A DNA stretch of 64,000 nt, taken from NCBI GenBank assembly GCA_965220085.1, contig CBDCOZ010000003.1:1963667-2027666 (forward strand), read 5' to 3'. This document shows positions 6,016 to 41,940 of this stretch, piece by piece; within the stretch, counting starts at the first letter, position 1, and each line of letters starts with the position of its first letter. This DNA is from Candidatus Oxydemutatoraceae bacterium (lineage in GTDB: Bacteria; Pseudomonadota; Gammaproteobacteria; Poriferisulfidales; Oxydemutatoraceae). A program made the position numbers and the translations under genes. The notes under the pieces are model-generated. The model worked only from the letters and a program-made list of their open reading frames with translations, was not told the origin of the DNA and searched no databases.

Positions 6016-8316
6016 TTGAAAAAGAAAGTCATCTCCAAAGCAACCGCCAAACGGTTACAAAAACCGCAGACACGACCGCCGGGCTCCGGGTTGCTCAAAC
6101 GCCTGCGCACCGCCATCGGCGCCATGCTGGTTGTCATCATCGCTTACCTGTTATTGGTATTGCTCGGCTACCACCCCGACGACCCGTCGTGGGCAAACAA
6201 TGTTCCTGCCGACCAAACCCGCAATCCCGGCGGCGTCATCGGCGCATGGATTGCATACACCTTGTATTTTTTCCTCGGCGGCCCGGCGCTTGTTTTGTTC
6301 CCGCTCGCCATCGGCCTGAGCGCGTGGCACTACTTTAAGCAGGAAGAGAGCGCCCCGTCCTTTCTCAACGAGCACCTGATCAACTGGCTGACATTTGTGC
6401 TGACGATCATCGCGTGTTGCGGGCTGGCATCGCTGCATTTTGTCGGCCACGAACTGCCATTGACGGCGGGCGGGCGGGTCGGCGAGGTGGCGGCGCGCAA
6501 TTTTGTCAGCGTATTCGGAATGGTCGGCTCCACGGTGCTATTGACCGGCCTTGCGGTCACCGGCTTCACCCTGATGACCGGCATTTCGTGGCTCAAAGTC
6601 ATGGATGCCATCGGCGCTTCGATATTCCGCCTGCTGGATTGGGGCAAAGAGCTGCGCGAACGCCGCGCCACGCAACTCGCCGCGGAAGACCGAGAGAAGA
6701 GAATCGTGCAAAGGAAGAAAAAGTTGTCTATTGATACGCCGCCGCGGATTGAACCGCAGGTCAAATCGGTCGGGCCGAGCAAACGCCAGCGGCGCGAGCG
6801 GCAGATCGGATTGCCCCAAGTGAAATCGTCCGATGAGTTGCCGGCGCTGAGTTTGCTGGATGCCTCGGCCGAAGAAGTCGCGGCGTATTCCGAAAAAGAG
6901 CTCAACCAAATGGCGAAGCAATTGGAGATCAAGTTGCAGGACTTCGGCATTGAAGCGGAGGTCACCGAAGCGCAGCCCGGCCCGATCATCACGCGCTTTG
7001 AATTGTTGCCGGCGCCCGGCACCAAAGCGTCCTCTATCAGCAATCTGGAGAAGGACCTGGCGCGCTCCATGTCGGTTCCGAGTCTGCGCGTCGTTGAAGT
7101 GATTCCGGGCAAATCGGTGGTCGGCATAGAAATTCCGAATCAGCGACCGTCCGTTGTGCGGCTGGGAGAAATTCTCGGTTCGCAAAAATACGACGAAGCC
7201 AAATCGCCTCTGACGCTCGCGCTCGGCAAAGGCATTACCGGCGAAGCGACGATGGTGAATCTGGAAAGCCTGCCCCATCTGCTGGCGGCGGGCACGACCG
7301 GGGCCGGCAAGTCGGTGGCGGTACATGTCATGCTGCTCAGTCTCTTGTTTAAGAATCTTCCCCGACAGGTGCGCCTGATTCTGATCGACCCCAAGATGCT
7401 GGAACTCAAAACCTACGAAAACATCCCCCACTTGCTGACGCCGGTGATTACCGATATGAACGAAGCAGCCGGCGTCCTGAACTGGGCGGTGGCCGAAATG
7501 GAACGGCGTTATCAATTGATGGCAAGCGTCGGCGCGCGCAATATCGGCGGGCTGAACCAGCGCATCGCCGAAGCGCAGAACCGCGGGCAGCCGCTGCGCG
7601 ACCCGTTGCTTGAGAATAGCGACGGCGAAGAGGGGGAAGCGAATGAGGCGCCGCTGCTGGAAGCGATGCCCTATATCGTCATCGTCATAGACGAGTTTGC
7701 GGACATGATGATGGTCGCCGGCAAAAAAGTCGAGGAACTGATTATCCGCCTGGCGCAAAAAGCCCGCGCCGCCGGCCTGCACCTGATTCTTGCGACCCAA
7801 CGGCCTTCCGTCGATATCATCACCGGTCTGGTCAAAGCAAACATTCCGGCGCGGATCGCTTTTCAGGTGTCGTCCAAAGTCGATTCGCGAACCATCCTGG
7901 ACCAAAACGGCGCCGAACAACTGCTCGGCAAAGGCGACATGTTATTCCTCGCCCCCGGCGGCGGCTTGCCGGAACGCATCCACGGCGCGTTTGTCAGCGA
8001 TCGGGAAGTCGCCAAGGTGACGGATTTTCTGCGCCGGACGGGAACGCCGCAATACGAAGACCTGCTCGCTGCGCCGACAGCCGGCGCGGGCGGCGCGGGC
8101 GGCGGACAAGGCGATGACCCGCTGTTTGACGAAGCCGTCGCCATCGTCACCGCATCCAACAAGGCCTCCATATCGCATCTGCAACGCCGCCTCAAGATCG
8201 GCTATAACCGCGCCGCCAGAATGATAGAGGACATGGAAGCCGCCGGCATTGTCAGCGCGGTGCAATCCAACGGCAGCCGCGAAGTGCTGGCGCCGCGCGA
8301 AGGTCGCGAATCATGA
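6016..8316 (+). CDS. ftsK: DNA translocase FtsK
   Basis: TTG start. Has N-terminal TM helices, a Pro/Gln-rich linker, Walker A GTTGAGKS and a C-terminal gamma winged-helix ([28 protein letters not shown]). Confidence 0.95.
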
Positions 8317-9125
8317 TGCGCCGCCTCAAGATCGGCTATAACCGCGCCGCCAGAATGATAGAGGACATGGAAGCCGCCGGCATTGTCAGCGCAGCGCAAT
8401 CCAACGGCAGCCGCGAAGCGCTGGCGCCGCGCGAAGGTCGCGAATCATGATGCGCCGCCTCAAGATCGGCTATAACCGCGCCGCCAAAATGACAGAGGAC
8501 ATGGAAGCCGCCGGCATTGTCAGCGCAGCGCAATCCAACGGCAGCCGCGAAGCGCTGGCGCCGCGCGAAGGTCGCGAATCATGATGCGCCGCCTCAAGAT
8601 CGGCTATAACCGCGCCGCCAAAATGACAGAGGACATGGAAGCCGCCGGCATTGTCAGCGCAGCGCAATCCAACGGCAGCCGCGAAGCGCTGGCGCCGCGC
8701 GAAGGTCGCGAATCATGATGCGCCGCCTCAAGATCGGCTATAACCGCGCCGCCAGAATGACAGAGGACATGGAAGCCGCCGGCATTGTCAGCGCAGCGCA
8801 ATCCAACGGCAGCCGCGAAGCGCTGGCGCCGCGCGAAGGTCGCGAATCATGATGCGCCGCCTCAAGATCGGCCATAACCGCGCCGCCAGAATGACAGAGG
8901 ACATGGAAGCCGCCGGCATTGTCAGCGCAGCGCAATCCAACGGCAGCCGCGAGGCGCTGGCGCCGCGCGAAGGTCGCGAATCATGATGCGCCGCCTCAAG
9001 ATCGGCTATAACCGCGCCGCCAGAATGACAGAGGACATGGAAGCCGCCGGCATTGTCAGCGCAGCGCAATCCAACGGCAACCGCGAAGCGCTGGCGCCGC
9101 GCGAAGGTCGCGAATCATGATGCGC
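8183..9125 (+). repeat. 134-bp tandem array of 7 copies: the ftsK 3' end plus the ATGA junction, with 6 extra copies before lolA
   Basis: ATGATGCGCCGCCTC recurs at 8313, 8447, 8581, 8715, 8849, 8983 and 9117 (period 134). The copies differ by a few point substitutions. Confidence 0.95.
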
Positions 9126-9731
9126 CGCCTCGGACTTTTGCTCTTGTGGCTGCCGTGTGTCGGCTCCGCCGGCGCACTCGACGACCTCTACCACTTTTTT
9201 CAGGCGACAACATTTGAGGCAGACTTTGCGCAGAAAGTCTATGACGATGAAGATCAATTGCTGGAGACTTCCCAAGGCTTTGTGCTGTTCCGCCGCCCGG
9301 GGCAATTCCGCTGGGAATACCGCGCGCCCGAAAGTTACATCATCACGACCGACGGCATCAATCTGCTCGTCTATGACCCGGCTTTGTCTCAGGCCTATGT
9401 TCGCCCGACGATGGAAGCGCTCGGCACCGCGCCTTTGCGCCTGCTGTTAGACCGCCGCCGGGTCTTTGATGATTTTGATTTGGAACCGGTTGCGCGCGCC
9501 GACAAACTGAAGTGGGTACGCTTGACTCCGAAAGTGGACGACACCGAATTCACGCATTTTGAAGTCGGCTTTGCCGGGCACGGGATCAGCCGCATGGCGT
9601 TGTTCGATCGCTTTGATCAACGCATAGACATACGCTTTGACAATGTGAAGATCAACCCGGCGATAGCGGCAAGCCGTTTCAAACTCCGGTTGCCGCCGGA
9701 CACCGATGTCATCGGCGACTACCTGCGCTGA
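9117..9731 (+). CDS. lolA: Outer-membrane lipoprotein carrier protein LolA
   Basis: Has a signal peptide [20 protein letters not shown] and LolA-like sequence throughout. Conserved ftsK–lolA synteny. Confidence 0.9.
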
Positions 9732-34684: not shown

Positions 34685-36030
34685 ACACCGGAGATAACGA
34701 ATGCCATCATGAGGTTCAGCGCGAACCCTTCCCTTGCCATCGTTTTGATATCAAACTTCCCCGCCCCATAAACGACTGTATTCGGAGGCGTGGCAACCGG
34801 TAACATGAAAGCGCAACTCGCGCTGATTGCCGCCGGAATCATTATCAGTCTCGGATCAATGCCGGCCCCGACACTGGCTGCCGCCAGGATGGGCATCAAC
34901 AGAGTAGTCGTTGCGGTATTGCTGGTTACTTCGGTAAGGAAAGTGACACCGAGGCAGATGATTAAGATCATCGCAAACACCGGCCACTCTGCCAGTATAG
35001 ACAAATGGGTGCCCAGCACATGACTCAAACCGCTCGCCTGAAATGCCTTGGCGATACAAATCCCCCCGGCGAACAGCAAAATGATTCCCCACGGAATAGA
35101 GCTGGCAGACTCCCAATCCAACAACCGTCCCTTCTTTCCGTCCGGCACCAAACACATCAGCACAACACCCGCCAAAGCGATCGTGCTGTCGCCAATCTGT
35201 GGCGCACCGACCAAGCCGGTCCAGCCGCCGAACGGCGCTTTGCGGAAAATCCATGCGAACACGACCAGCGCAAAGATCAACAACACCCGTCGCTCGGCAA
35301 TCTCCCATGTGCCGACCACAGGCAAATTAATACGCTTCTCAATATGCAAGCCGCGGGTCAGCCAAAATGCTGCCAGCGGTATGCCGAGCAACACGACGGG
35401 CACACCCACTTTCATCCAATCCAGAAAATCCTGACTGGCGCCAAACTGCTCCTGATAAACCGCCATATAAACGACATTAGGCGGTGTCCCGATCGGTGTG
35501 CCAACACCTCCGATACTTGACGCATAGGCGATACCAAGCAGTAATACGGTAGCAAAGCGCGGGTTCTCGGTCGCCGTCACAACCGCCAATACGATCGGCA
35601 ACAGCATCAATACCGTCGCGGTATTGCTCATCCACATGCTCAAAATGGCGGCGGTCGCCATAAAGCCCAGAATGATATTGACCGGCTTGTTGGCGCCGAA
35701 CGCATTGACCATGTACAACGCCAAACGGCGATGGACGCCGCTTTTCTCCACCGAGCGCGACAACATGAACGCGCCCATCATCAGGATGATCAGATGATTG
35801 CCCACCGAACTCGCGGCAACTTTGTAATCCAACACCCCGAACGCCGGGAACAATACCAACGGCACCAACGATGTGACCGGAATCGGCAGGGCTTCCGTCA
35901 CCCACCACACGACGACCAGCGTCGTCACGCCCGCCGTTGCGGCGATAGACCATTCAAGTCCCGATACATCGCAGACCCATATTGCCAATGCTGCCAGAAC
36001 CGGGCCCAGAAAAAGATTAAATTGTTTCAT
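34666..36030 (-). CDS. DASS/SLC13-type anion (sulfate/dicarboxylate) transporter
   Basis: Polytopic membrane protein with ArsB/NhaD-superfamily repeats. Confidence 0.6.
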   Translation of the reverse strand: MKQFNLFLGPVLAALAIWVCDVSGLEWSIAATAGVTTLVVVWWVTEALPIPVTSLVPLVLFPAFGVLDYKVAASSVGNHLIILMMGAFMLSRSVEKSGVHRRLALYMVNAFGANKPVNIILGFMATAAILSMWMSNTATVLMLLPIVLAVVTATENPRFATVLLLGIAYASSIGGVGTPIGTPPNVVYMAVYQEQFGASQDFLDWMKVGVPVVLLGIPLAAFWLTRGLHIEKRINLPVVGTWEIAERRVLLIFALVVFAWIFRKAPFGGWTGLVGAPQIGDSTIALAGVVLMCLVPDGKKGRLLDWESASSIPWGIILLFAGGICIAKAFQASGLSHVLGTHLSILAEWPVFAMILIICLGVTFLTEVTSNTATTTLLMPILAAASVGAGIDPRLIMIPAAISASCAFMLPVATPPNTVVYGAGKFDIKTMAREGFALNLMMAFVISGVCYFII

Positions 36031-36091
36031 AAAATATTTGGCAAGTAATTCTTATGTTGATATTTTAAGGCGCTTTGTGCGCAGGTGTTTG

Positions 36092-37006
36092 TTACTTTGC
36101 CGCTTGATAGGCCTGCTCTATCAAGGTCAAAATATAGGGCAAATCTTCTTGCTTGGCACAAAATACTTGCACATATCCGCCTTGTTGTCCCCCGCTTATG
36201 GAAATCTCCTTTGAAATCTGTTTCGGGTCATGTAATTTTTCCGGTGGAATCCTTAGCACGATTCTTATTTTTTTCTTCCGCAGCTCTATGAATGCAAAGG
36301 TAACTTGTGTTATGTACGAGACATAGTTTTTCCGTACCCTTTCTTCTATGCCATCGTCAAAATCAAGAATCTTTTCTTGTAATGCAAAAAACAGATTTTT
36401 TACCGGCTCATCCGCGGTACTCAAATGGTCATCGAGCGTATAAACCTTTATTTCTTTGCTGACACTCTCAATGGTCGCCTTGTTTTTAGAAGTGGTTTTG
36501 ATCGATTCCTTTGCATCGGATGAAAGCAACTGGTTGTATAAAATTGTGGAATTGTCGTAAGCCCTGACTTCCCACAACTCAATCGCTAAATCCCGGAAGT
36601 TGATGGCATTTTTCTGATAGGTAGTAAACCTTTGCGCCAGAAACAAAACTTTTGACTGCGACCAATCCACATCTTTACGCCCCAACTTCTCCTTGGTCTT
36701 CTCGTTGTATTCCAGAATGAAATCGGCCTTGTTGTTAAGCATTGCGGCGAGGTAGGAAAACCCTTGGTCGATGACACTGGAACTTCTATTCCGCTTGTAC
36801 TCGATGATGACAAAAGAACGGGTCTCTTCATCAAACGCGAGCGTATCGATGCGAAAGCTTTGCACGGGGAATTCCGTGCTGATAAACCGCAAGCCAAAAA
36901 CGGTTTCCAAATTACCCTCGGTTAATCTTTGGATGTCTCTTTCAAGGTCAATACGCTTTTCCTTTATCAGGGACAGCTTCTGTTTTTGTATATTAAAAAT
37001 TGCCAT
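36092..37006 (-). CDS. PD-(D/E)xK nuclease-fold protein of unknown function (NucS/DUF-like core IDTLAFDEETRSFVIIEYKR)
   Basis: D…E.K motif in the typical NucS-like context. Low-GC gene inside the R-M island. Confidence 0.5.
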   Translation of the reverse strand: MAIFNIQKQKLSLIKEKRIDLERDIQRLTEGNLETVFGLRFISTEFPVQSFRIDTLAFDEETRSFVIIEYKRNRSSSVIDQGFSYLAAMLNNKADFILEYNEKTKEKLGRKDVDWSQSKVLFLAQRFTTYQKNAINFRDLAIELWEVRAYDNSTILYNQLLSSDAKESIKTTSKNKATIESVSKEIKVYTLDDHLSTADEPVKNLFFALQEKILDFDDGIEERVRKNYVSYITQVTFAFIELRKKKIRIVLRIPPEKLHDPKQISKEISISGGQQGGYVQVFCAKQEDLPYILTLIEQAYQAAK

Positions 37007-37166
37007 AATTATTTCGCAGTGTGTCAGCCACTATAGAACAAAGACCCAAAGGCTTCCTTGCCGTTGCCTGTGTTGACCCAAGACACCATGTGCATAGCAA
37101 GTTGCGCCTCGTACCTCTCAATTACACTTTCGGTCATGTTCTCTTAAATAAAGCTTTCAATTCTTA

Positions 37167-37934
37167 TTATCTTATTCGTTTCCTAGCGATTTTTACATAC
37201 TCTTTGTCTTGCTCAATTCCAATCCATTCGCGATTGTACTTTTTTGCTACAAAGGCCGTGGTGCCACTTCCCAAAAACGGATCAAGAACTATGTCCCCTT
37301 TTCGGGAACTTGCCAAAATAATACGCTTCAGCATTTCTTCCGGTTTTTGTGTTGGGTGTAATGCACGCCCATTACCACCATGTAAGCGCTCCTTACCCTG
37401 CACAAGCGACAACTCCCAAAGATCACGCATTTGCTTAGGACTCCCATCCTTTTTCTTATCAGGATTTATTTCTTTTATTTTTTCGTAATCAAAAGTCCAA
37501 CCACTTCCTTTTACTGCCCAAACAACAAATTCTGTTGAGTGTGTGAACACTCGTCTTGTCATGTTTGGCATCGCATTTGTTTTATACCAAGTAATGAGGT
37601 TATTCACTTTGAAATCAAGCTGTTTCAAAACAATCATTACTTCTGCAACATTGTGGTAGCTACACGCAACATAAATTGAACCTTTTTCTTTCAGAACCTT
37701 ATCACACGCACCAAGCCACTTTCTTGTAAACTGCAAATATTCTGGCGCTGTCATCTTATCCCACTGCTCATTGACCATGTACCAATCACCACCAGTCTCA
37801 TTTCCTTTCCATTTCAGTCCATTTCCAGACAAGTTGTAAGGTGGGTCTGCAAAAATTAGGTCAATGGAATTCTCATCAACTCTCTTGTTGAGCACATCAA
37901 TACAATTCCCGCTGTAAATAATATTTGTTTTCAT
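37167..37934 (-). CDS. DNA methyltransferase, beta-class (N6-adenine or N4-cytosine)
   Basis: N-terminal DPPY (IFADPPYNL), C-terminal FxGxG-like LDPFLGSGTT. Confidence 0.8.
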   Translation of the reverse strand: MKTNIIYSGNCIDVLNKRVDENSIDLIFADPPYNLSGNGLKWKGNETGGDWYMVNEQWDKMTAPEYLQFTRKWLGACDKVLKEKGSIYVACSYHNVAEVMIVLKQLDFKVNNLITWYKTNAMPNMTRRVFTHSTEFVVWAVKGSGWTFDYEKIKEINPDKKKDGSPKQMRDLWELSLVQGKERLHGGNGRALHPTQKPEEMLKRIILASSRKGDIVLDPFLGSGTTAFVAKKYNREWIGIEQDKEYVKIARKRIR

Positions 37935-37937
37935 ATT

Positions 37938-39761
37938 TTATGTTTGAGGGACAAGACTTGCTTGCCATGCAGAAATCGCACTTGGAATATTTTGTAACCA
38001 CCCATTTGAGTCATTAGATGACCTTGATAAGTCTATGATTTCATCATATAAACGTGAAATTTCTGTATGCCGCAAGAATCTTTTCTGTGATTTCATTTGC
38101 ACTAAAACTTTCAAAATAGAAATAAATTGGTCTATTGAGAGAGGAATAATTTTTTGCGATTGCCCCTCATATTCATACCTTATTGCCATCCAAAAAGTGT
38201 TTATTGTGTCTCTATGTAACTTTGGAGCAATGAACAAGCAATAAGAAGGCTTGTCACCGTATTTTTGTTCAAAGTCACGCAAGTGGCGCATTACTGGCTG
38301 CCCTTCGTTATACCACTGAGTGCGACTACTCAACATCGTGACTTCACAAATTGCATTAAAACTCTCATAGAAACATTCTATATCTGGTGTGTTTGCTGGC
38401 GCGGTAAATGTTGGCTCATTATCATCGCCAACAGGATAATTAGGCTGAATTTTCAATGCATCGTTTAGGGCATATAATCCAAGTGCCGATAGTTTCTCAA
38501 GTAAAATTGGCCTGTCTTTAAAACTAAAAATATTACCCAAATCTTTGATATAAGATTCAATTCGCTTAACCTCCTGAGATTTCTTGTGGCTTTCTTCATC
38601 CTGCAACTCTCGGCGATATTCTCTTAACTCTGAAATATAGTTTTTTAGTTCGGCATTTTGCAGCAATTGGAAATTTTTAATCACAAGGCTTTCTTTTTGC
38701 AAAGCAGATTCATACCCCTGTATTTCCTCAATCAATTTCTCAATAATCTCGACATGTTTTTCTATTGTCTCCCAAGGTAGTTTTGGCTCCGAAATATCAG
38801 AAATATAGGCGAGGCGCTCTTCCTCAGAAGCAAAAGCTTTTGATTGTGCATTATCAAAATCAAGCAAAGAATTGATTTCAACTAATCTCCTCGGTTCTAA
38901 GTCAATGTAAAATCCGCCGCCTCGGATATAAATATATCTTGTACGACGAAAATAACGAATCACATTATCGCCATAATCTTGCAAATTCTTCAACAATTTT
39001 CTTATCTCATTTTTGTTGTCAGTCTCTAAAAACTCACCAGCGAATTGCTTTTCATGGGAATCAAAAACTACGCTTCGTTCCTGTTCTGTTTTGCCTGATA
39101 ACTCATCTCGTAGCGCAATAACCTTTTCTGCGTAAGAGTCAATATCTTGATAATGCACTAAGGTTGGCACAAAAAGAGAAAACTCTTTTTTGCTAATGCC
39201 CTTTGCACTGTTCCCGCGAGCAACTTCTTTTTGATTCACTGCGTTAATCAAATGTAATGTTCCGATAAATGGCTTTATATTGTCATCTACATCAGCTAGA
39301 TTACCTTGGTTACCCTTCCCTGGAACCTGCCATTTCAAGAAACTCCTAAAAAGGAACTCTCCAAAATCCAAGTCGCCTTTCAAAAACAGCCTGCCCCATT
39401 CTGTTATTTTCACCCTCTTATCCTCAATGGCGACCAACCCAATTTTTTTGAGAGGGTTCATTGATTGCCTTCCGCGCATCGCAGGATCCTCATAGCCTTT
39501 TATATTGAAGATTTCTTCTGCTTGTTCAAAAGAGATATCTTTTGACGAATCTTCCATCAGAGCAATCTTGTCTTCGGGAAGATCCTTATAAAATTGTCTT
39601 TGCCCGTAGCCATATGCTCGATTTTGAATCAATAAGATTTGATATCTCTTTTGGCTCTCAGAATTCCATTCGGAATCTTCTAGTTGTTTCAAAACAATCA
39701 AGAACCTTCTCAACCTCTCTGGATTTCGTAGCGTTGTTGTAATTGACCAAGGCTTTTTCAT
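37938..39761 (-). CDS. Type IIS restriction endonuclease, AlwI family (tentative family assignment)
   Basis: N-terminal WSITTTLRNPERL resembles the RE_AlwI family signature as recalled from memory. Size is ~600 aa. Flanked by two MTases. Confidence 0.55.
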   Translation of the reverse strand: MKKPWSITTTLRNPERLRRFLIVLKQLEDSEWNSESQKRYQILLIQNRAYGYGQRQFYKDLPEDKIALMEDSSKDISFEQAEEIFNIKGYEDPAMRGRQSMNPLKKIGLVAIEDKRVKITEWGRLFLKGDLDFGEFLFRSFLKWQVPGKGNQGNLADVDDNIKPFIGTLHLINAVNQKEVARGNSAKGISKKEFSLFVPTLVHYQDIDSYAEKVIALRDELSGKTEQERSVVFDSHEKQFAGEFLETDNKNEIRKLLKNLQDYGDNVIRYFRRTRYIYIRGGGFYIDLEPRRLVEINSLLDFDNAQSKAFASEEERLAYISDISEPKLPWETIEKHVEIIEKLIEEIQGYESALQKESLVIKNFQLLQNAELKNYISELREYRRELQDEESHKKSQEVKRIESYIKDLGNIFSFKDRPILLEKLSALGLYALNDALKIQPNYPVGDDNEPTFTAPANTPDIECFYESFNAICEVTMLSSRTQWYNEGQPVMRHLRDFEQKYGDKPSYCLFIAPKLHRDTINTFWMAIRYEYEGQSQKIIPLSIDQFISILKVLVQMKSQKRFLRHTEISRLYDEIIDLSRSSNDSNGWLQNIPSAISAWQASLVPQT

Positions 39762-39763
39762 AA

Positions 39764-41665
39764 TTATTTTGTTACTTCACAGTAGAAAATACGTTCCGCA
39801 TTATTCCTTCCGTTACTTTTTCCTGTTGTGAAGGCTTTGTAATCTTTTTCAAAAATTTCGACATCGCCCTTATCATTCAGGATTTGCAAAATGTCGTTAT
39901 CATGTATCCGTGCATTTGAACGTCCGTCTTTTGAATCTCCAGTGTTGTTATATGATAGTAAAATGTGTTTGCAATCGGCATCTCTTATCAAACCTGCAAG
40001 TGCACTCGTTGCGCTCTTGAGGCAATAATCGCTCTTGATGTGTGAACGAGCCATCTTTTTACTAATTCCAACAACTTGCGGCCTTTCCCATTCTGCAAGA
40101 TTTTCTAAAAGATGATATGCATCCGAGTATTGGCGCGAATTGTATGGCGGGTCAATATATAAAACATCACAGGAGATTTTTCGTATAAGTGTATTTGCAT
40201 CTTCTTTATAAATCTCATTATTTATGTTGCGTGAATAATCAATATCGGGAACAAGTAACTTTATTGGTTGGAGCATATCTAGCCTTTTACGAAAAGCGTC
40301 ATAATGCCCAACAGTATTTGCCACTTTATCAACTGCGTAAATAAGAGAACAAATCAAGAGATTTCTCTCATCTTTGCCTTCTATGCTTCTGTCAATCTCT
40401 TCTCTAATCACACCTATTTTCCTTGCATTTTCTTCTGTGAAGTATGTTCCGCCAAAGTGTTTTGAAAAATAATTTTCCTTGTCGCTTGGCAAATTGTTGA
40501 GATATTTTATTTTTTCAGAAATACTTTTTTGAGGCTCTTTGCTTACTCCCAAGAATGCTTGTAGGCAAGTATAGTTTGCAAAAAGAAAATCATTGGAAAT
40601 AATCTTTATGCTTGGGTTATTGAACCTTGCCCCGACAACACCGGTTCCCGCAAAGATATCGCAAAACGAGCCTACTAATCCGCACTTCTCGGAGATTATA
40701 TCTTCAACAAACCCGAGTAATTTATATTTATTACCTAAATAACGTCTGTTTTGAAGTTGAAAATATCCGTTTTTTGAACCCCGCGGTTGGAAATAATGCT
40801 TATAGTTTTTTTGAACACTAGCCCCATAAGCAGGCCTTTCAATTTCTAACAAATCAAAAAGTGTTCCTTGCGCTCCGTCCGCAACATAATCAAAACTTTC
40901 GTTTTGGTCTTTTAGTTTTTCGTAAAAACTAAAATCTCCTTTTGATGAAACGATAATAAAATCAATAACAGGTATTCCCATTATATTTCCCGCTTGCACG
41001 ATTTTCTCTACAACCTCAATATCCTTTTTACTGGGCAACGAATCGCCAGATGGATGATTGTGTACCAAAATTACACTCGCGGCATTGAGTTCTATCGCAG
41101 AATAAAAAATTTCTCTTGGATGAAGTAATGTCTTGTCAGCAAGTCCAATACTTACAACTTCTTTTCTCAACAAGACATTTCGTGCATTTAGATACAAACA
41201 AACAAGATATTCCTTTTTCTTACTTCGCAAATCATAGGTTAGTGAAGCAATATCTTGAGAGTTTTTTATCACAACCTCGTTTGTTTGATTGTCTGCATAA
41301 AACCTTTTAACGAGAGAAATTGCTGACGCAATTTGTAAGGCTTTGGCTTCGCCAATTCCTGCAACGCTTTTCAAGTCATCTACTGTAATATTCAAAAAGT
41401 TTTTACTAAATCTCTTGATAATTTGTCGTGAGAGCTGCTGAACATTTTTCCCTTTGATTCCACTTCCAAGCAGGATTGACAAAAGATCGCTTTTTGAAAG
41501 TGCCTCTGGACCTTTCTTGAGAAATTTTTCCCTTGGTCTATCAACTTTTGGAATATCTTTAATCTTTGCCATGTTTATTTCACTAATGCACTCAAGGGAT
41601 TTTTTCATTTTGCTTGCACGACTGAGAGAACACACCCAAAGCGTAATGGAGTTGTTGTCGTTCAC
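39764..41665 (-). CDS. Fusion protein: N-terminal RadC-like (HhH + JAB/MPN HNHPSGD) domain and C-terminal Dam-like (D12 class) N6-adenine DNA methyltransferase
   Basis: DRPREKFL…LSILLGSG…VAGIGEAKA…VILVHNHPSGDSLPSKKDIEVV is RadC. NRRYLGNKYKLL…FCDIFAGTGVVG…LYIDPPYN is Dam-like. The start is probably at MAKIKD (~41569). Confidence 0.8.
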   Translation of the reverse strand: MNDNNSITLWVCSLSRASKMKKSLECISEINMAKIKDIPKVDRPREKFLKKGPEALSKSDLLSILLGSGIKGKNVQQLSRQIIKRFSKNFLNITVDDLKSVAGIGEAKALQIASAISLVKRFYADNQTNEVVIKNSQDIASLTYDLRSKKKEYLVCLYLNARNVLLRKEVVSIGLADKTLLHPREIFYSAIELNAASVILVHNHPSGDSLPSKKDIEVVEKIVQAGNIMGIPVIDFIIVSSKGDFSFYEKLKDQNESFDYVADGAQGTLFDLLEIERPAYGASVQKNYKHYFQPRGSKNGYFQLQNRRYLGNKYKLLGFVEDIISEKCGLVGSFCDIFAGTGVVGARFNNPSIKIISNDFLFANYTCLQAFLGVSKEPQKSISEKIKYLNNLPSDKENYFSKHFGGTYFTEENARKIGVIREEIDRSIEGKDERNLLICSLIYAVDKVANTVGHYDAFRKRLDMLQPIKLLVPDIDYSRNINNEIYKEDANTLIRKISCDVLYIDPPYNSRQYSDAYHLLENLAEWERPQVVGISKKMARSHIKSDYCLKSATSALAGLIRDADCKHILLSYNNTGDSKDGRSNARIHDNDILQILNDKGDVEIFEKDYKAFTTGKSNGRNNAERIFYCEVTK

Positions 41666-41845
41666 GCTTCATAAGGCGTGAGATATGCACAAGTTTCAAT
41701 CGTTTCGTTTTTTTAATCAAAACCCTATCGATTTTACTCGTGAAAAGTTTGAACTTTAATCAAAAAAACGCCGCTGAACCTTCCTATAAGAAGAATTGAG
41801 CGACGCAACGAGTGGCACCATGCCGGAGATGTTGACGTTGTAGTA

Positions 41846-41940
<95 letters not shown>

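Follow-up and report, generated by a model that had tools for sequence, protein, structure and literature searches.

A stretch of 64,000 nucleotides from Candidatus Oxydemutatoraceae bacterium (assembly GCA_965220085.1, contig CBDCOZ010000003.1, positions 1,963,667 to 2,027,666), referred to in the following as the window, carries on its minus strand a gene (39764..41572) whose product joins a RadC protein to a D12-class N6-adenine DNA methyltransferase. This product is one of two adenine methyltransferases in a Type IIS restriction-modification (R-M) cassette of three genes that was acquired horizontally. Its RadC half belongs to a distinct clade of fused RadC proteins, the complete members of which are almost always joined to R-M methyltransferases of whatever chemical class, and it is dispensable for the R-M core, i.e. 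it is an accessory module. In addition, the linker between the two halves harbors a candidate sliding-clamp-binding motif, by which the methyltransferase might be tethered to newly synthesized DNA. RadC proteins are nearly universal in bacteria, induced together with competence genes and carried on many mobile elements. The original "DNA repair" assignment of RadC was withdrawn, and no activity is known to have been assigned to it since.

The fusion protein

The gene is a real and intact fusion and neither the result of a frameshift nor an assembly artefact. It lies within an uninterrupted open reading frame (ORF) on the minus strand (39764..41665) that would encode 633 amino acids (aa) if the GTG at 41665 were taken as the start codon. 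Most likely, however, the ATG at 41572 is the real start, since the 240 homologues listed measure approximately 600-606 aa and nucleotide homology to related cassettes ends at most 14 nucleotides (nt) upstream of this codon. The resulting coding sequence (39764..41572, stop codon included) opens the cassette and specifies a protein of 602 aa with the N-terminus MAKIKDIPKV, to which all residue numbers given here refer. The in-frame 5′ extension (41573..41665, minus strand), which contains the GTG at 41665 and a further ATG at 41608, is probably untranslated. It is not conserved among related cassettes, and homologues begin at MAKIKD; in the cluster of the window protein itself, one gene call uses a start that yields 614 aa. 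An earlier note on this DNA, made from the sequence alone, had set the ORF at 39764-41665: the frame is indeed uninterrupted, while its 5′ end was placed 93 nt too far upstream. That two adjacent genes were merged through loss of a stop codon or through an error in sequencing or assembly is practically out of the question, as the best 240 clusters listed are all full-length fusions, 66 loci from independent assemblies contain the fusion and the linker is conserved. The recurrence of the full-length fusion in many independent assemblies thus refutes an artefact or frameshift.

The RadC half starts with a UPF0758_N/helix-hairpin-helix (HhH) region (residues 4-78, 41339..41563, minus strand; Pfam PF20582 3e-22, HHH 1e-3). 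Residues 1-50 are the best-conserved section of the entire protein, with 81-82% identity to the window across 67 fusions. The RadC-type JAB domain follows at residues 102-219 (40916..41269, minus strand; Pfam PF04002 1e-35). It matches a solved RadC structure (PDB 2QLC) both in sequence (6e-23) and, by Foldseek, in fold (TM score 0.85, root-mean-square deviation of about 2 Å, 39% identity), with a per-residue confidence (pLDDT) of about 73-85 in the predicted model over this domain. Furthermore, the protein scores 210 bits against the NCBIfam RadC equivalog PRK00024, for which the cutoff is 180. The JAMM metal site, HNHPSGDSLPSKKD, comprises H171, H173, S181 and D184 (41021..41062, minus strand), with E154 upstream at 41111-41113. 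In all 67 complete fusions aligned, a set that includes those with C5-cytosine and N6_N4 methyltransferase partners, E154, H171, H173 and D184 do not vary, and S181 is retained in 66 of them with a single change from S to T. Because these residues are invariant or nearly so, the JAB domain appears to be maintained as an enzyme. In every sequence and fold property of the RadC family that was compared, the half agrees with its relatives, the sole departure being that it is not a standalone protein of about 220-230 aa. The complete N-terminal RadC with HhH and JAMM motif claimed in the earlier note is therefore borne out by Pfam, NCBIfam and the alignment of the 67 fusions.

The C-terminal half (residues 271-602, 39767..40762, minus strand) is a D12-class, i.e. 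alpha-group, N6-adenine DNA methyltransferase (Pfam PF02086 2e-32; 113 bits, cutoff 22), as that note had likewise proposed, and all motif strings quoted there are present. Motif I, FAGTGVVG (40631-40654; FAGTG at residues 307-311), lies N-terminal to motif IV, DPPY (40142-40153; residues 474-477). The PADLOC profile MTase_II PDLC03373 (1e-112) covers residues 271-601 only, and thus the reference methyltransferases behind this profile lack the RadC part. According to a fold search with the predicted structure, the methyltransferase fold resembles that of E. coli Dam; sequence searches of the PDB with this half, as a single sequence or as a profile, gave no match. Membership in the Dam family proper (TIGR00571, GATC) was ruled out, as the score of 24.5 bits stays far below the cutoff (114.85). 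Relatives of this half are annotated as Type IIS methylases of the FokI or LlaI type.

The Type IIS cassette and its distribution

The cassette consists of three intact ORFs that are co-oriented on the minus strand in the order RadC-methyltransferase (M1), AlwI/BstNBI-family restriction endonuclease (REase) and CcrM-like methyltransferase (M2). It spans 4.4 kb with intergenic gaps of 2 nt between fusion and REase and 3 nt between REase and M2. The Type IIS restriction (or nicking) endonuclease (607 aa, 37938..39761, minus strand) matches Pfam RE_AlwI (PF09491) at 6e-79. Among solved structures, it comes closest to Nt.BspD6I, a large subunit with nicking activity (4.5e-29), and its top PADLOC profile is termed 'Type II nicking endonuclease' (2e-133). 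Within or beside the cassette, no ORF for a BspD6I-like small catalytic subunit (approximately 186 aa) was found; similarity to this small subunit resides within the C-terminus of the cassette REase. A heterodimeric system of the BspD6I/BstNBI type was rejected, as a separate small-subunit gene is missing. M2 (255 aa, 37167..37934, minus strand) is a CcrM/HinfI-like methyltransferase of the N6_N4 class (Pfam PF01555 1e-62), the closest PDB relative of which is CcrM (1.3e-56), with DpnA matching as well (8e-30). The cassette hence contains two methyltransferase genes. According to a review of Type II systems, REases that cut at asymmetric Type IIS sites are usually accompanied by two adenine methyltransferases (PMC4081073).

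The cassette is part of an islet that measures about 5.7 kb (~36000-41800) and has a low GC content of 35-44%, compared to 52-62% in the flanks. Nucleotide homology to a gammaproteobacterial metagenome-assembled genome (MAG; locus L001) amounts to 82% and extends over 37166-41576, which corresponds to exactly the three ORFs. In four further loci (L017, L008, L010 and L015), the homology block is likewise limited to the three ORFs with almost no flank (overall 37166-41586). As homology is confined to the ORFs, the transferred unit does not include a conserved promoter or operator.

The fusion is abundant rather than rare. With the window protein as query, the best 120 clusters listed (73-100% identity) all carry PF04002, PF02086 and PF20582, and the same is true for the best 120 clusters listed with a second subfamily as query. 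A scan of GTDB species genomes provided 80 related loci (L001-L080), nearly all of them from MAGs, 66 of which contain the full-length fusion and fall into two groups (39 in group A, which is of the same type as the window, and 27 in group B). Their hosts include Patescibacteria, Gammaproteobacteria, Spirochaetota, Planctomycetes, Atribacterota, Omnitrophota, Cloacimonadota and others as well as a few archaeal bins. That homologous fusions adjoin AlwI-like REases, a neighborhood raised in the earlier note, holds for both groups. Among group A loci with enough downstream sequence, the AlwI-family REase is present in 31 of 33 and the CcrM-like M2 in all 33, gene order and strand are constant, and the REase match begins within 43 nt of the end of the fusion match in 28/31 loci, most often 5 nt past it. 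Group B shows a different arrangement, in which the RadC-D12 methyltransferase is followed by a second D12 methyltransferase and then by a distant AlwI-family REase (23/23 loci with room); its methyltransferase is only 42-45% identical to that of the window. Four loci (L034, L051, L069 and L074) represent decayed copies, in which the ORF is truncated inside the methyltransferase half and the REase is gone, whereas RadC and the CcrM-like methyltransferase persist. Such a pattern is expected when an R-M system loses its restriction gene first.

Fused copies were not found among PLSDB plasmids, INPHARED phages or IMG/VR. The fusion was hence rejected as a polyvalent mobile-element protein, given also that it resides in a chromosomal R-M cassette without transfer or virion genes nearby. 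All database names for the fusion are automatic ('DNA repair protein RadC', 'adenine-specific DNA-methyltransferase' or 'hypothetical protein'). Full-text literature searches returned no paper that describes a RadC-methyltransferase fusion; the architecture may sit uncommented in REBASE or InterPro, which lay outside this search. The novelty suspected in the earlier note thus survives in one respect, as no description of the architecture was found in the literature searched, and fails in another, as it is not uncommon judging by the best 240 clusters listed and by precomputed Pfam architectures. Of the twofold finding that the note itself had named as speaking against its idea, a common and already annotated architecture, one half applies: the fusion is common, and its annotation is automatic only.

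The clade of fused RadC proteins

A search with the RadC half against 1.84 billion representatives clustered at 50% identity separated fused from ordinary RadC proteins. The top 14 matches (197-422 bits) are methyltransferase fusions or fragments thereof, and at 192 bits and below follow ordinary standalone RadC proteins of 210-280 aa with no more than 46% identity. Consistently, a neighbor-joining tree of 154 RadC sequences places all 17 fusions inside one clade of 23 tips. The Pfam partners of this clade comprise D12, C5-cytosine and N6_N4 methyltransferases, and the REases encoded alongside are unrelated to each other, belonging to the AlwI family or being NgoFVII-like or Type IIG-like. In L075 (8001-13127), a RadC-N6_N4 methyltransferase is followed by a 911-aa N6_Mtase/Eco57I-like protein and a protein with HARE-HTH and PD-(D/E)XK domains. 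L077 (6642-9894) encodes a RadC-C5 methyltransferase with an NgoFVII-like REase and Vsr downstream; both L078 (4014-7124; N6_N4 methyltransferase partner) and L080 feature a 655-aa fusion beside an NgoFVII-like REase.

The two halves of the protein have diverged to different degrees. RadC modules of group B are as similar to that of the window (60-82% identity) as those of group A (57-83%), whereas the methyltransferase halves are 42-45% identical in group B and 65-87% in group A. This points to an exchange of modules or, alternatively, to a much stronger constraint on RadC than on the methyltransferase.

Conceivably, the module could be nothing else than a housekeeping RadC that hitch-hikes on the cassette, for example in the reduced genomes of the candidate phyla radiation, without any functional coupling to methylation. 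In line with this notion, it exceeds the NCBIfam threshold for the RadC equivalog, and many hosts belong to Patescibacteria or DPANN lineages with small genomes. However, the fused RadCs form a clade of their own with a private linker motif (see below), the module recurs with three methyltransferase classes, fusions also occur in Gammaproteobacteria including the host of the window, and the degree to which RadC resembles the window protein does not follow the resemblance seen for the methyltransferase. We therefore consider passive carriage of this kind improbable.

RadC as an accessory module

Orthologous cassettes exist without RadC or with a helix-turn-helix (HTH) domain in its place, which identifies RadC as an accessory to the R-M core. 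In L071 (Pelagibacteraceae), the same three genes are found with an unfused methyltransferase of 337 aa. In L059 (Spirochaetota, 7986-9140), RadC has been lost, while the methyltransferase (384 aa) still begins with the linker motif (GIQGTLFDLLEF); this single example hints that the motif may serve the methyltransferase without RadC. Moreover, a MerR-like HTH replaces RadC at the N-terminus of orthologous D12 methyltransferases that adjoin AlwI-family REases. Such orthologues are encoded on Lactococcus lactis and Staphylococcus aureus plasmids (L081, 3875-5071; L082, 3812-5944) and in Clostridium eludens (L073, 5785-7008).

Two further explanations for the presence of RadC take up suggestions of the earlier note, which had considered processing of incoming single-stranded DNA (ssDNA) or antitoxin-like control of the methyltransferase. 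The first assumes a nuclease that processes DNA ends, either by cutting the second strand for a nicking REase or by acting on incoming ssDNA. The nicking label of the top REase profile and the closest solved structure would fit, as the 186-aa small subunit of BspD6I is without counterpart in the cassette. A nucleolytic role was also inferred by Iyer et al. from DinG fusions, in which RadC takes the place of a 3′-5′ exonuclease (PMC3239186), and the ParB-nuclease-methyltransferase fusion Bce_0392 offers a precedent (PMC5512222). Yet, the RadC-less cassette L071 has an REase of the same family and equally lacks a small subunit, and RadC is also attached to methyltransferases whose partner REases are unrelated and non-nicking. 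In addition, no nuclease activity of RadC is on record, with a 2026 preprint still referring to its mechanism as 'elusive', and the host would be put at risk if its protective methyltransferase had a nuclease attached. Altogether, such a function appears unlikely.

The second explanation, which in our estimate is just as unlikely, regards RadC as a regulatory or antitoxin-like module, with the JAB domain acting as a peptidase or regulator that controls the activity or timing of REase or methyltransferase. It could stand in for a C-protein or an HTH autoregulator, perhaps via degradation of the REase or autoprocessing of the linker. The MerR-like HTH that holds the same N-terminal position in the Lactococcus and Staphylococcus plasmid orthologues and in L073 supports this view, as does the lack of a C-protein and of a conserved upstream region in the cassette. 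Likewise, the JAB domains characterized to date are peptidases according to the parts of PMC5512222 that concern them, and the linker is predicted to be disordered and hence accessible. On the other hand, one RadC clade serves methyltransferases with unrelated REases (AlwI-family, NgoFVII-like and Type IIG-like), so that a common protein substrate is improbable and proteolytic control directed at the REase becomes less likely. Furthermore, the same parts of PMC5512222 report that RadC is without a groove for ubiquitin tails and predict that it acts on nucleic acids. Finally, the HhH binds DNA non-specifically and would thus make a poor operator binder.

The interdomain linker

RadC and methyltransferase are connected by a linker of about 40 aa, of which residues 222-261 are predicted to be disordered (pLDDT 31-46 in the AlphaFold2 (AF2) model). 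Within this linker, the RadC module carries a conserved extension (residues 228-249, DYVADGAQGTLFDLLEIERPAY, 40826..40891, minus strand) that occupies some 30 residues after the JAB domain in every fusion, irrespective of the methyltransferase class. Standalone RadC proteins lack such a tail and end about 8 residues past the JAB domain. The motif common to the fusions reads YV[AS][DE]GxQx[ST]LFDLLE. Among the 67 fusions, Y229 and Q235 are invariant, and L238 and F239 are each found in 65. Y229 is followed by V, A or S, D or E, G and one variable residue before Q235. Position 236, the second of the pentapeptide that begins with Q235, is variable, and position 237 is T or S in 58/67. Downstream of F239, the residues D, L, L and E precede two variable positions, P247, one variable position and Y249.

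The core of this extension, QGTLF (residues 235-239, 40856..40870, minus strand), is embedded in the linker peptide FDYVADGAQGTLFDLLEIERPAY and fits the pattern QxxLF; variants of the pentapeptide among the fusions include QLSLF and QLNLF. Motifs that bind sliding clamps are usually located in unstructured segments. Their bacterial consensus is QL[S/D]LF or, more broadly, QxxLF, with positions 1, 4 and 5 being critical (PMC12309361). QGTLF matches this consensus and may therefore be considered a candidate clamp-binding motif. Transposases of mobile elements use clamp-binding motifs as well, for which cross-binding to archaeal PCNA is possible (PMC4549789). The literature searched contained neither a link between RadC and the clamp nor a bacterial DNA methyltransferase with a clamp motif. 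What seems to be new is a RadC clade that, judged by its sequences, is specialized for R-M methyltransferases of three classes and combines an invariant active site with a candidate clamp-binding linker.

Proposed mechanism

As a working model, the RadC module would act on DNA instead of on the partner REase. The HhH and the QxxLF motif in the disordered linker could tether the methyltransferase to DNA-loaded sliding clamps and thereby put it on newly synthesized DNA, either at the replication fork or while the complementary strand of incoming DNA is being made. In this way, methylation would stay ahead of the REase, while the JAB metallohydrolase might process some DNA-associated substrate. 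The occurrence of the fusion across methyltransferase chemistries and REase types demands a benefit that is independent of both, and tethering would offer one. It would also suit a cassette that crosses phyla without regulatory DNA of its own. In agreement with a function at the fork, genetic work has linked RadC of E. coli to defects of the replication fork (Saveson and Lovett 1999, as cited in PMC9674854).

Several points weigh against clamp tethering. The conserved block, with Y229, [DE]G, DLLE, P247 and Y249, exceeds a bare clamp-binding motif and could be a docking helix for another partner, and the AF2 model does predict a short helix at 238-242. At the second and third position of the pentapeptide, Gly and Thr deviate from the residues that fit the consensus best, and some loci come from bins assigned to archaea, whose clamp is PCNA and not the beta clamp. 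In addition, hemimethylation normally suffices to protect a site from restriction, and a selective need for replication coupling is thus not obvious. Tethering as such would also leave the strictly conserved JAB active site unaccounted for.

Taken together, it is highly probable that the gene belongs to a Type IIS R-M cassette with RadC as an accessory module, while clamp tethering itself is a tentative proposal that we consider less likely than not. For the explanation as a whole, i.e. R-M cassette, accessory RadC module and clamp tethering, which is the best one available, we estimate a probability of about 40%. A more general idea would be that the dedicated RadC clade with its clamp-binding linker couples R-M methyltransferases of three classes to the replisome as a prokaryotic counterpart of DNMT1-PCNA; this remains speculative and is somewhat more doubtful than tethering in the cassette at hand.

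Genomic surroundings

The low-GC islet abuts the 3′ side of a tRNA-Ser(GCT) gene predicted by ARAGORN (41848..41940, minus strand), which borders it and beyond which csrA and then an aspartokinase gene are located. An integrase and att-like direct repeats were sought at the islet and not found, and scans for promoters and terminators returned nothing above the shuffled background. The islet also contains a candidate defense gene (36092..37006, minus strand; Pfam DUF5655 5e-14, PADLOC PDC-S18 1e-109), which nonetheless falls outside the conserved cassette and the block of nucleotide homology. Its product has an HSDR_N-like N-terminus, and PDC-S18 denotes a candidate single-gene defense system in PADLOC. 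In L016 and L052, homologues of the DUF5655 protein (30% identity) are encoded immediately upstream of the fusion gene.

With regard to the recognition site, the available hints conflict. CcrM, to which M2 is nearest, points to GANTC, and Nt.BspD6I, to which the REase is nearest, points to GAGTC, yet it is GGATC/GATCC that is depleted in the host flanks (1-36000 and 41801-64000), with 43 sites observed and 75 expected under a Markov model. GAGTC/GACTC is not depleted there (89 observed, 91 expected).

Relation to known systems

In its core, the cassette resembles the AlwI/BstNBI(BspD6I)/PleI/MlyI Type IIS systems, with which it shares a compact, co-oriented operon and an REase that is homologous along its length to Nt.BspD6I and RE_AlwI. 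It differs from this family, as reviewed in PMC4081073, by the N-terminal RadC of M1, which is not mentioned there, and by the lack of a gene for a small catalytic subunit. DpnII-type systems with DpnM and DpnA similarly pair a D12 with an N6_N4 methyltransferase; they use another REase family, and M2 of the window is much closer to CcrM. DpnA is known for competence-regulated methylation of ssDNA.

The RadC half, in turn, shares the HhH and the JAB domain with E, HxH, S and D with standalone RadC/YicR (UPF0758), from which it is set apart by its fusion, its separate clade (at most 46% identity) and the QxxLF extension of about 30 aa. The RadC fusions catalogued by Iyer and Aravind involve HhH, ArdC, DnaG primase, the DinG/Rad3 helicase and polyvalent proteins of conjugative elements (RadC passages of PMC3239186 and PMC5512222), and a methyltransferase partner is not listed in these passages. 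As far as they go, the catalogued fusions and the present one have in common that RadC is a portable module on DNA-acting domains involved in conflicts between host and mobile DNA. Here, however, the partner is a protective defense methyltransferase and not an anti-restriction or transfer protein, and the locus is without conjugation or phage genes.

N-terminal HTH domains of R-M methyltransferases are known to autoregulate transcription in other R-M systems. The HTH-bearing orthologues described above are comparable to the fusion in that an accessory DNA-binding domain precedes a D12 methyltransferase beside an AlwI-family REase; unlike RadC, their MerR-like HTH is devoid of a catalytic site. 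A further parallel, drawn by analogy only, is offered by DNMT1 with its PCNA-interacting protein (PIP) box and by bacterial clamp clients (polymerases, Hda, MutS and insertion sequence transposases), in which a short motif of the Q-x-x-L-F type likewise occurs in a disordered segment beside an enzyme acting on DNA. The interaction of DNMT1 with PCNA couples maintenance methylation to replication.

Conclusions

Selection has repeatedly kept a RadC clade on R-M methyltransferases, with its active site intact and with a private motif that resembles a clamp-binding motif. The three-gene cassette of 4.4 kb is a simple and cheap system for testing the function of RadC, as changes in the methylome, in SOS induction, in phage restriction or in how the cassette establishes itself in a naive host would all be easy to read. 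Should this lead nowhere, the locus would simply add another copy to a widespread R-M gene with automatic annotation. If coupling to the clamp holds true, it would show how R-M cassettes with a broad host range keep methylation ahead in the absence of conserved transcriptional control. Coupling to the replisome would furthermore place the RadC metallohydrolase at replication forks and may thus provide the first tractable assay for RadC biochemistry.

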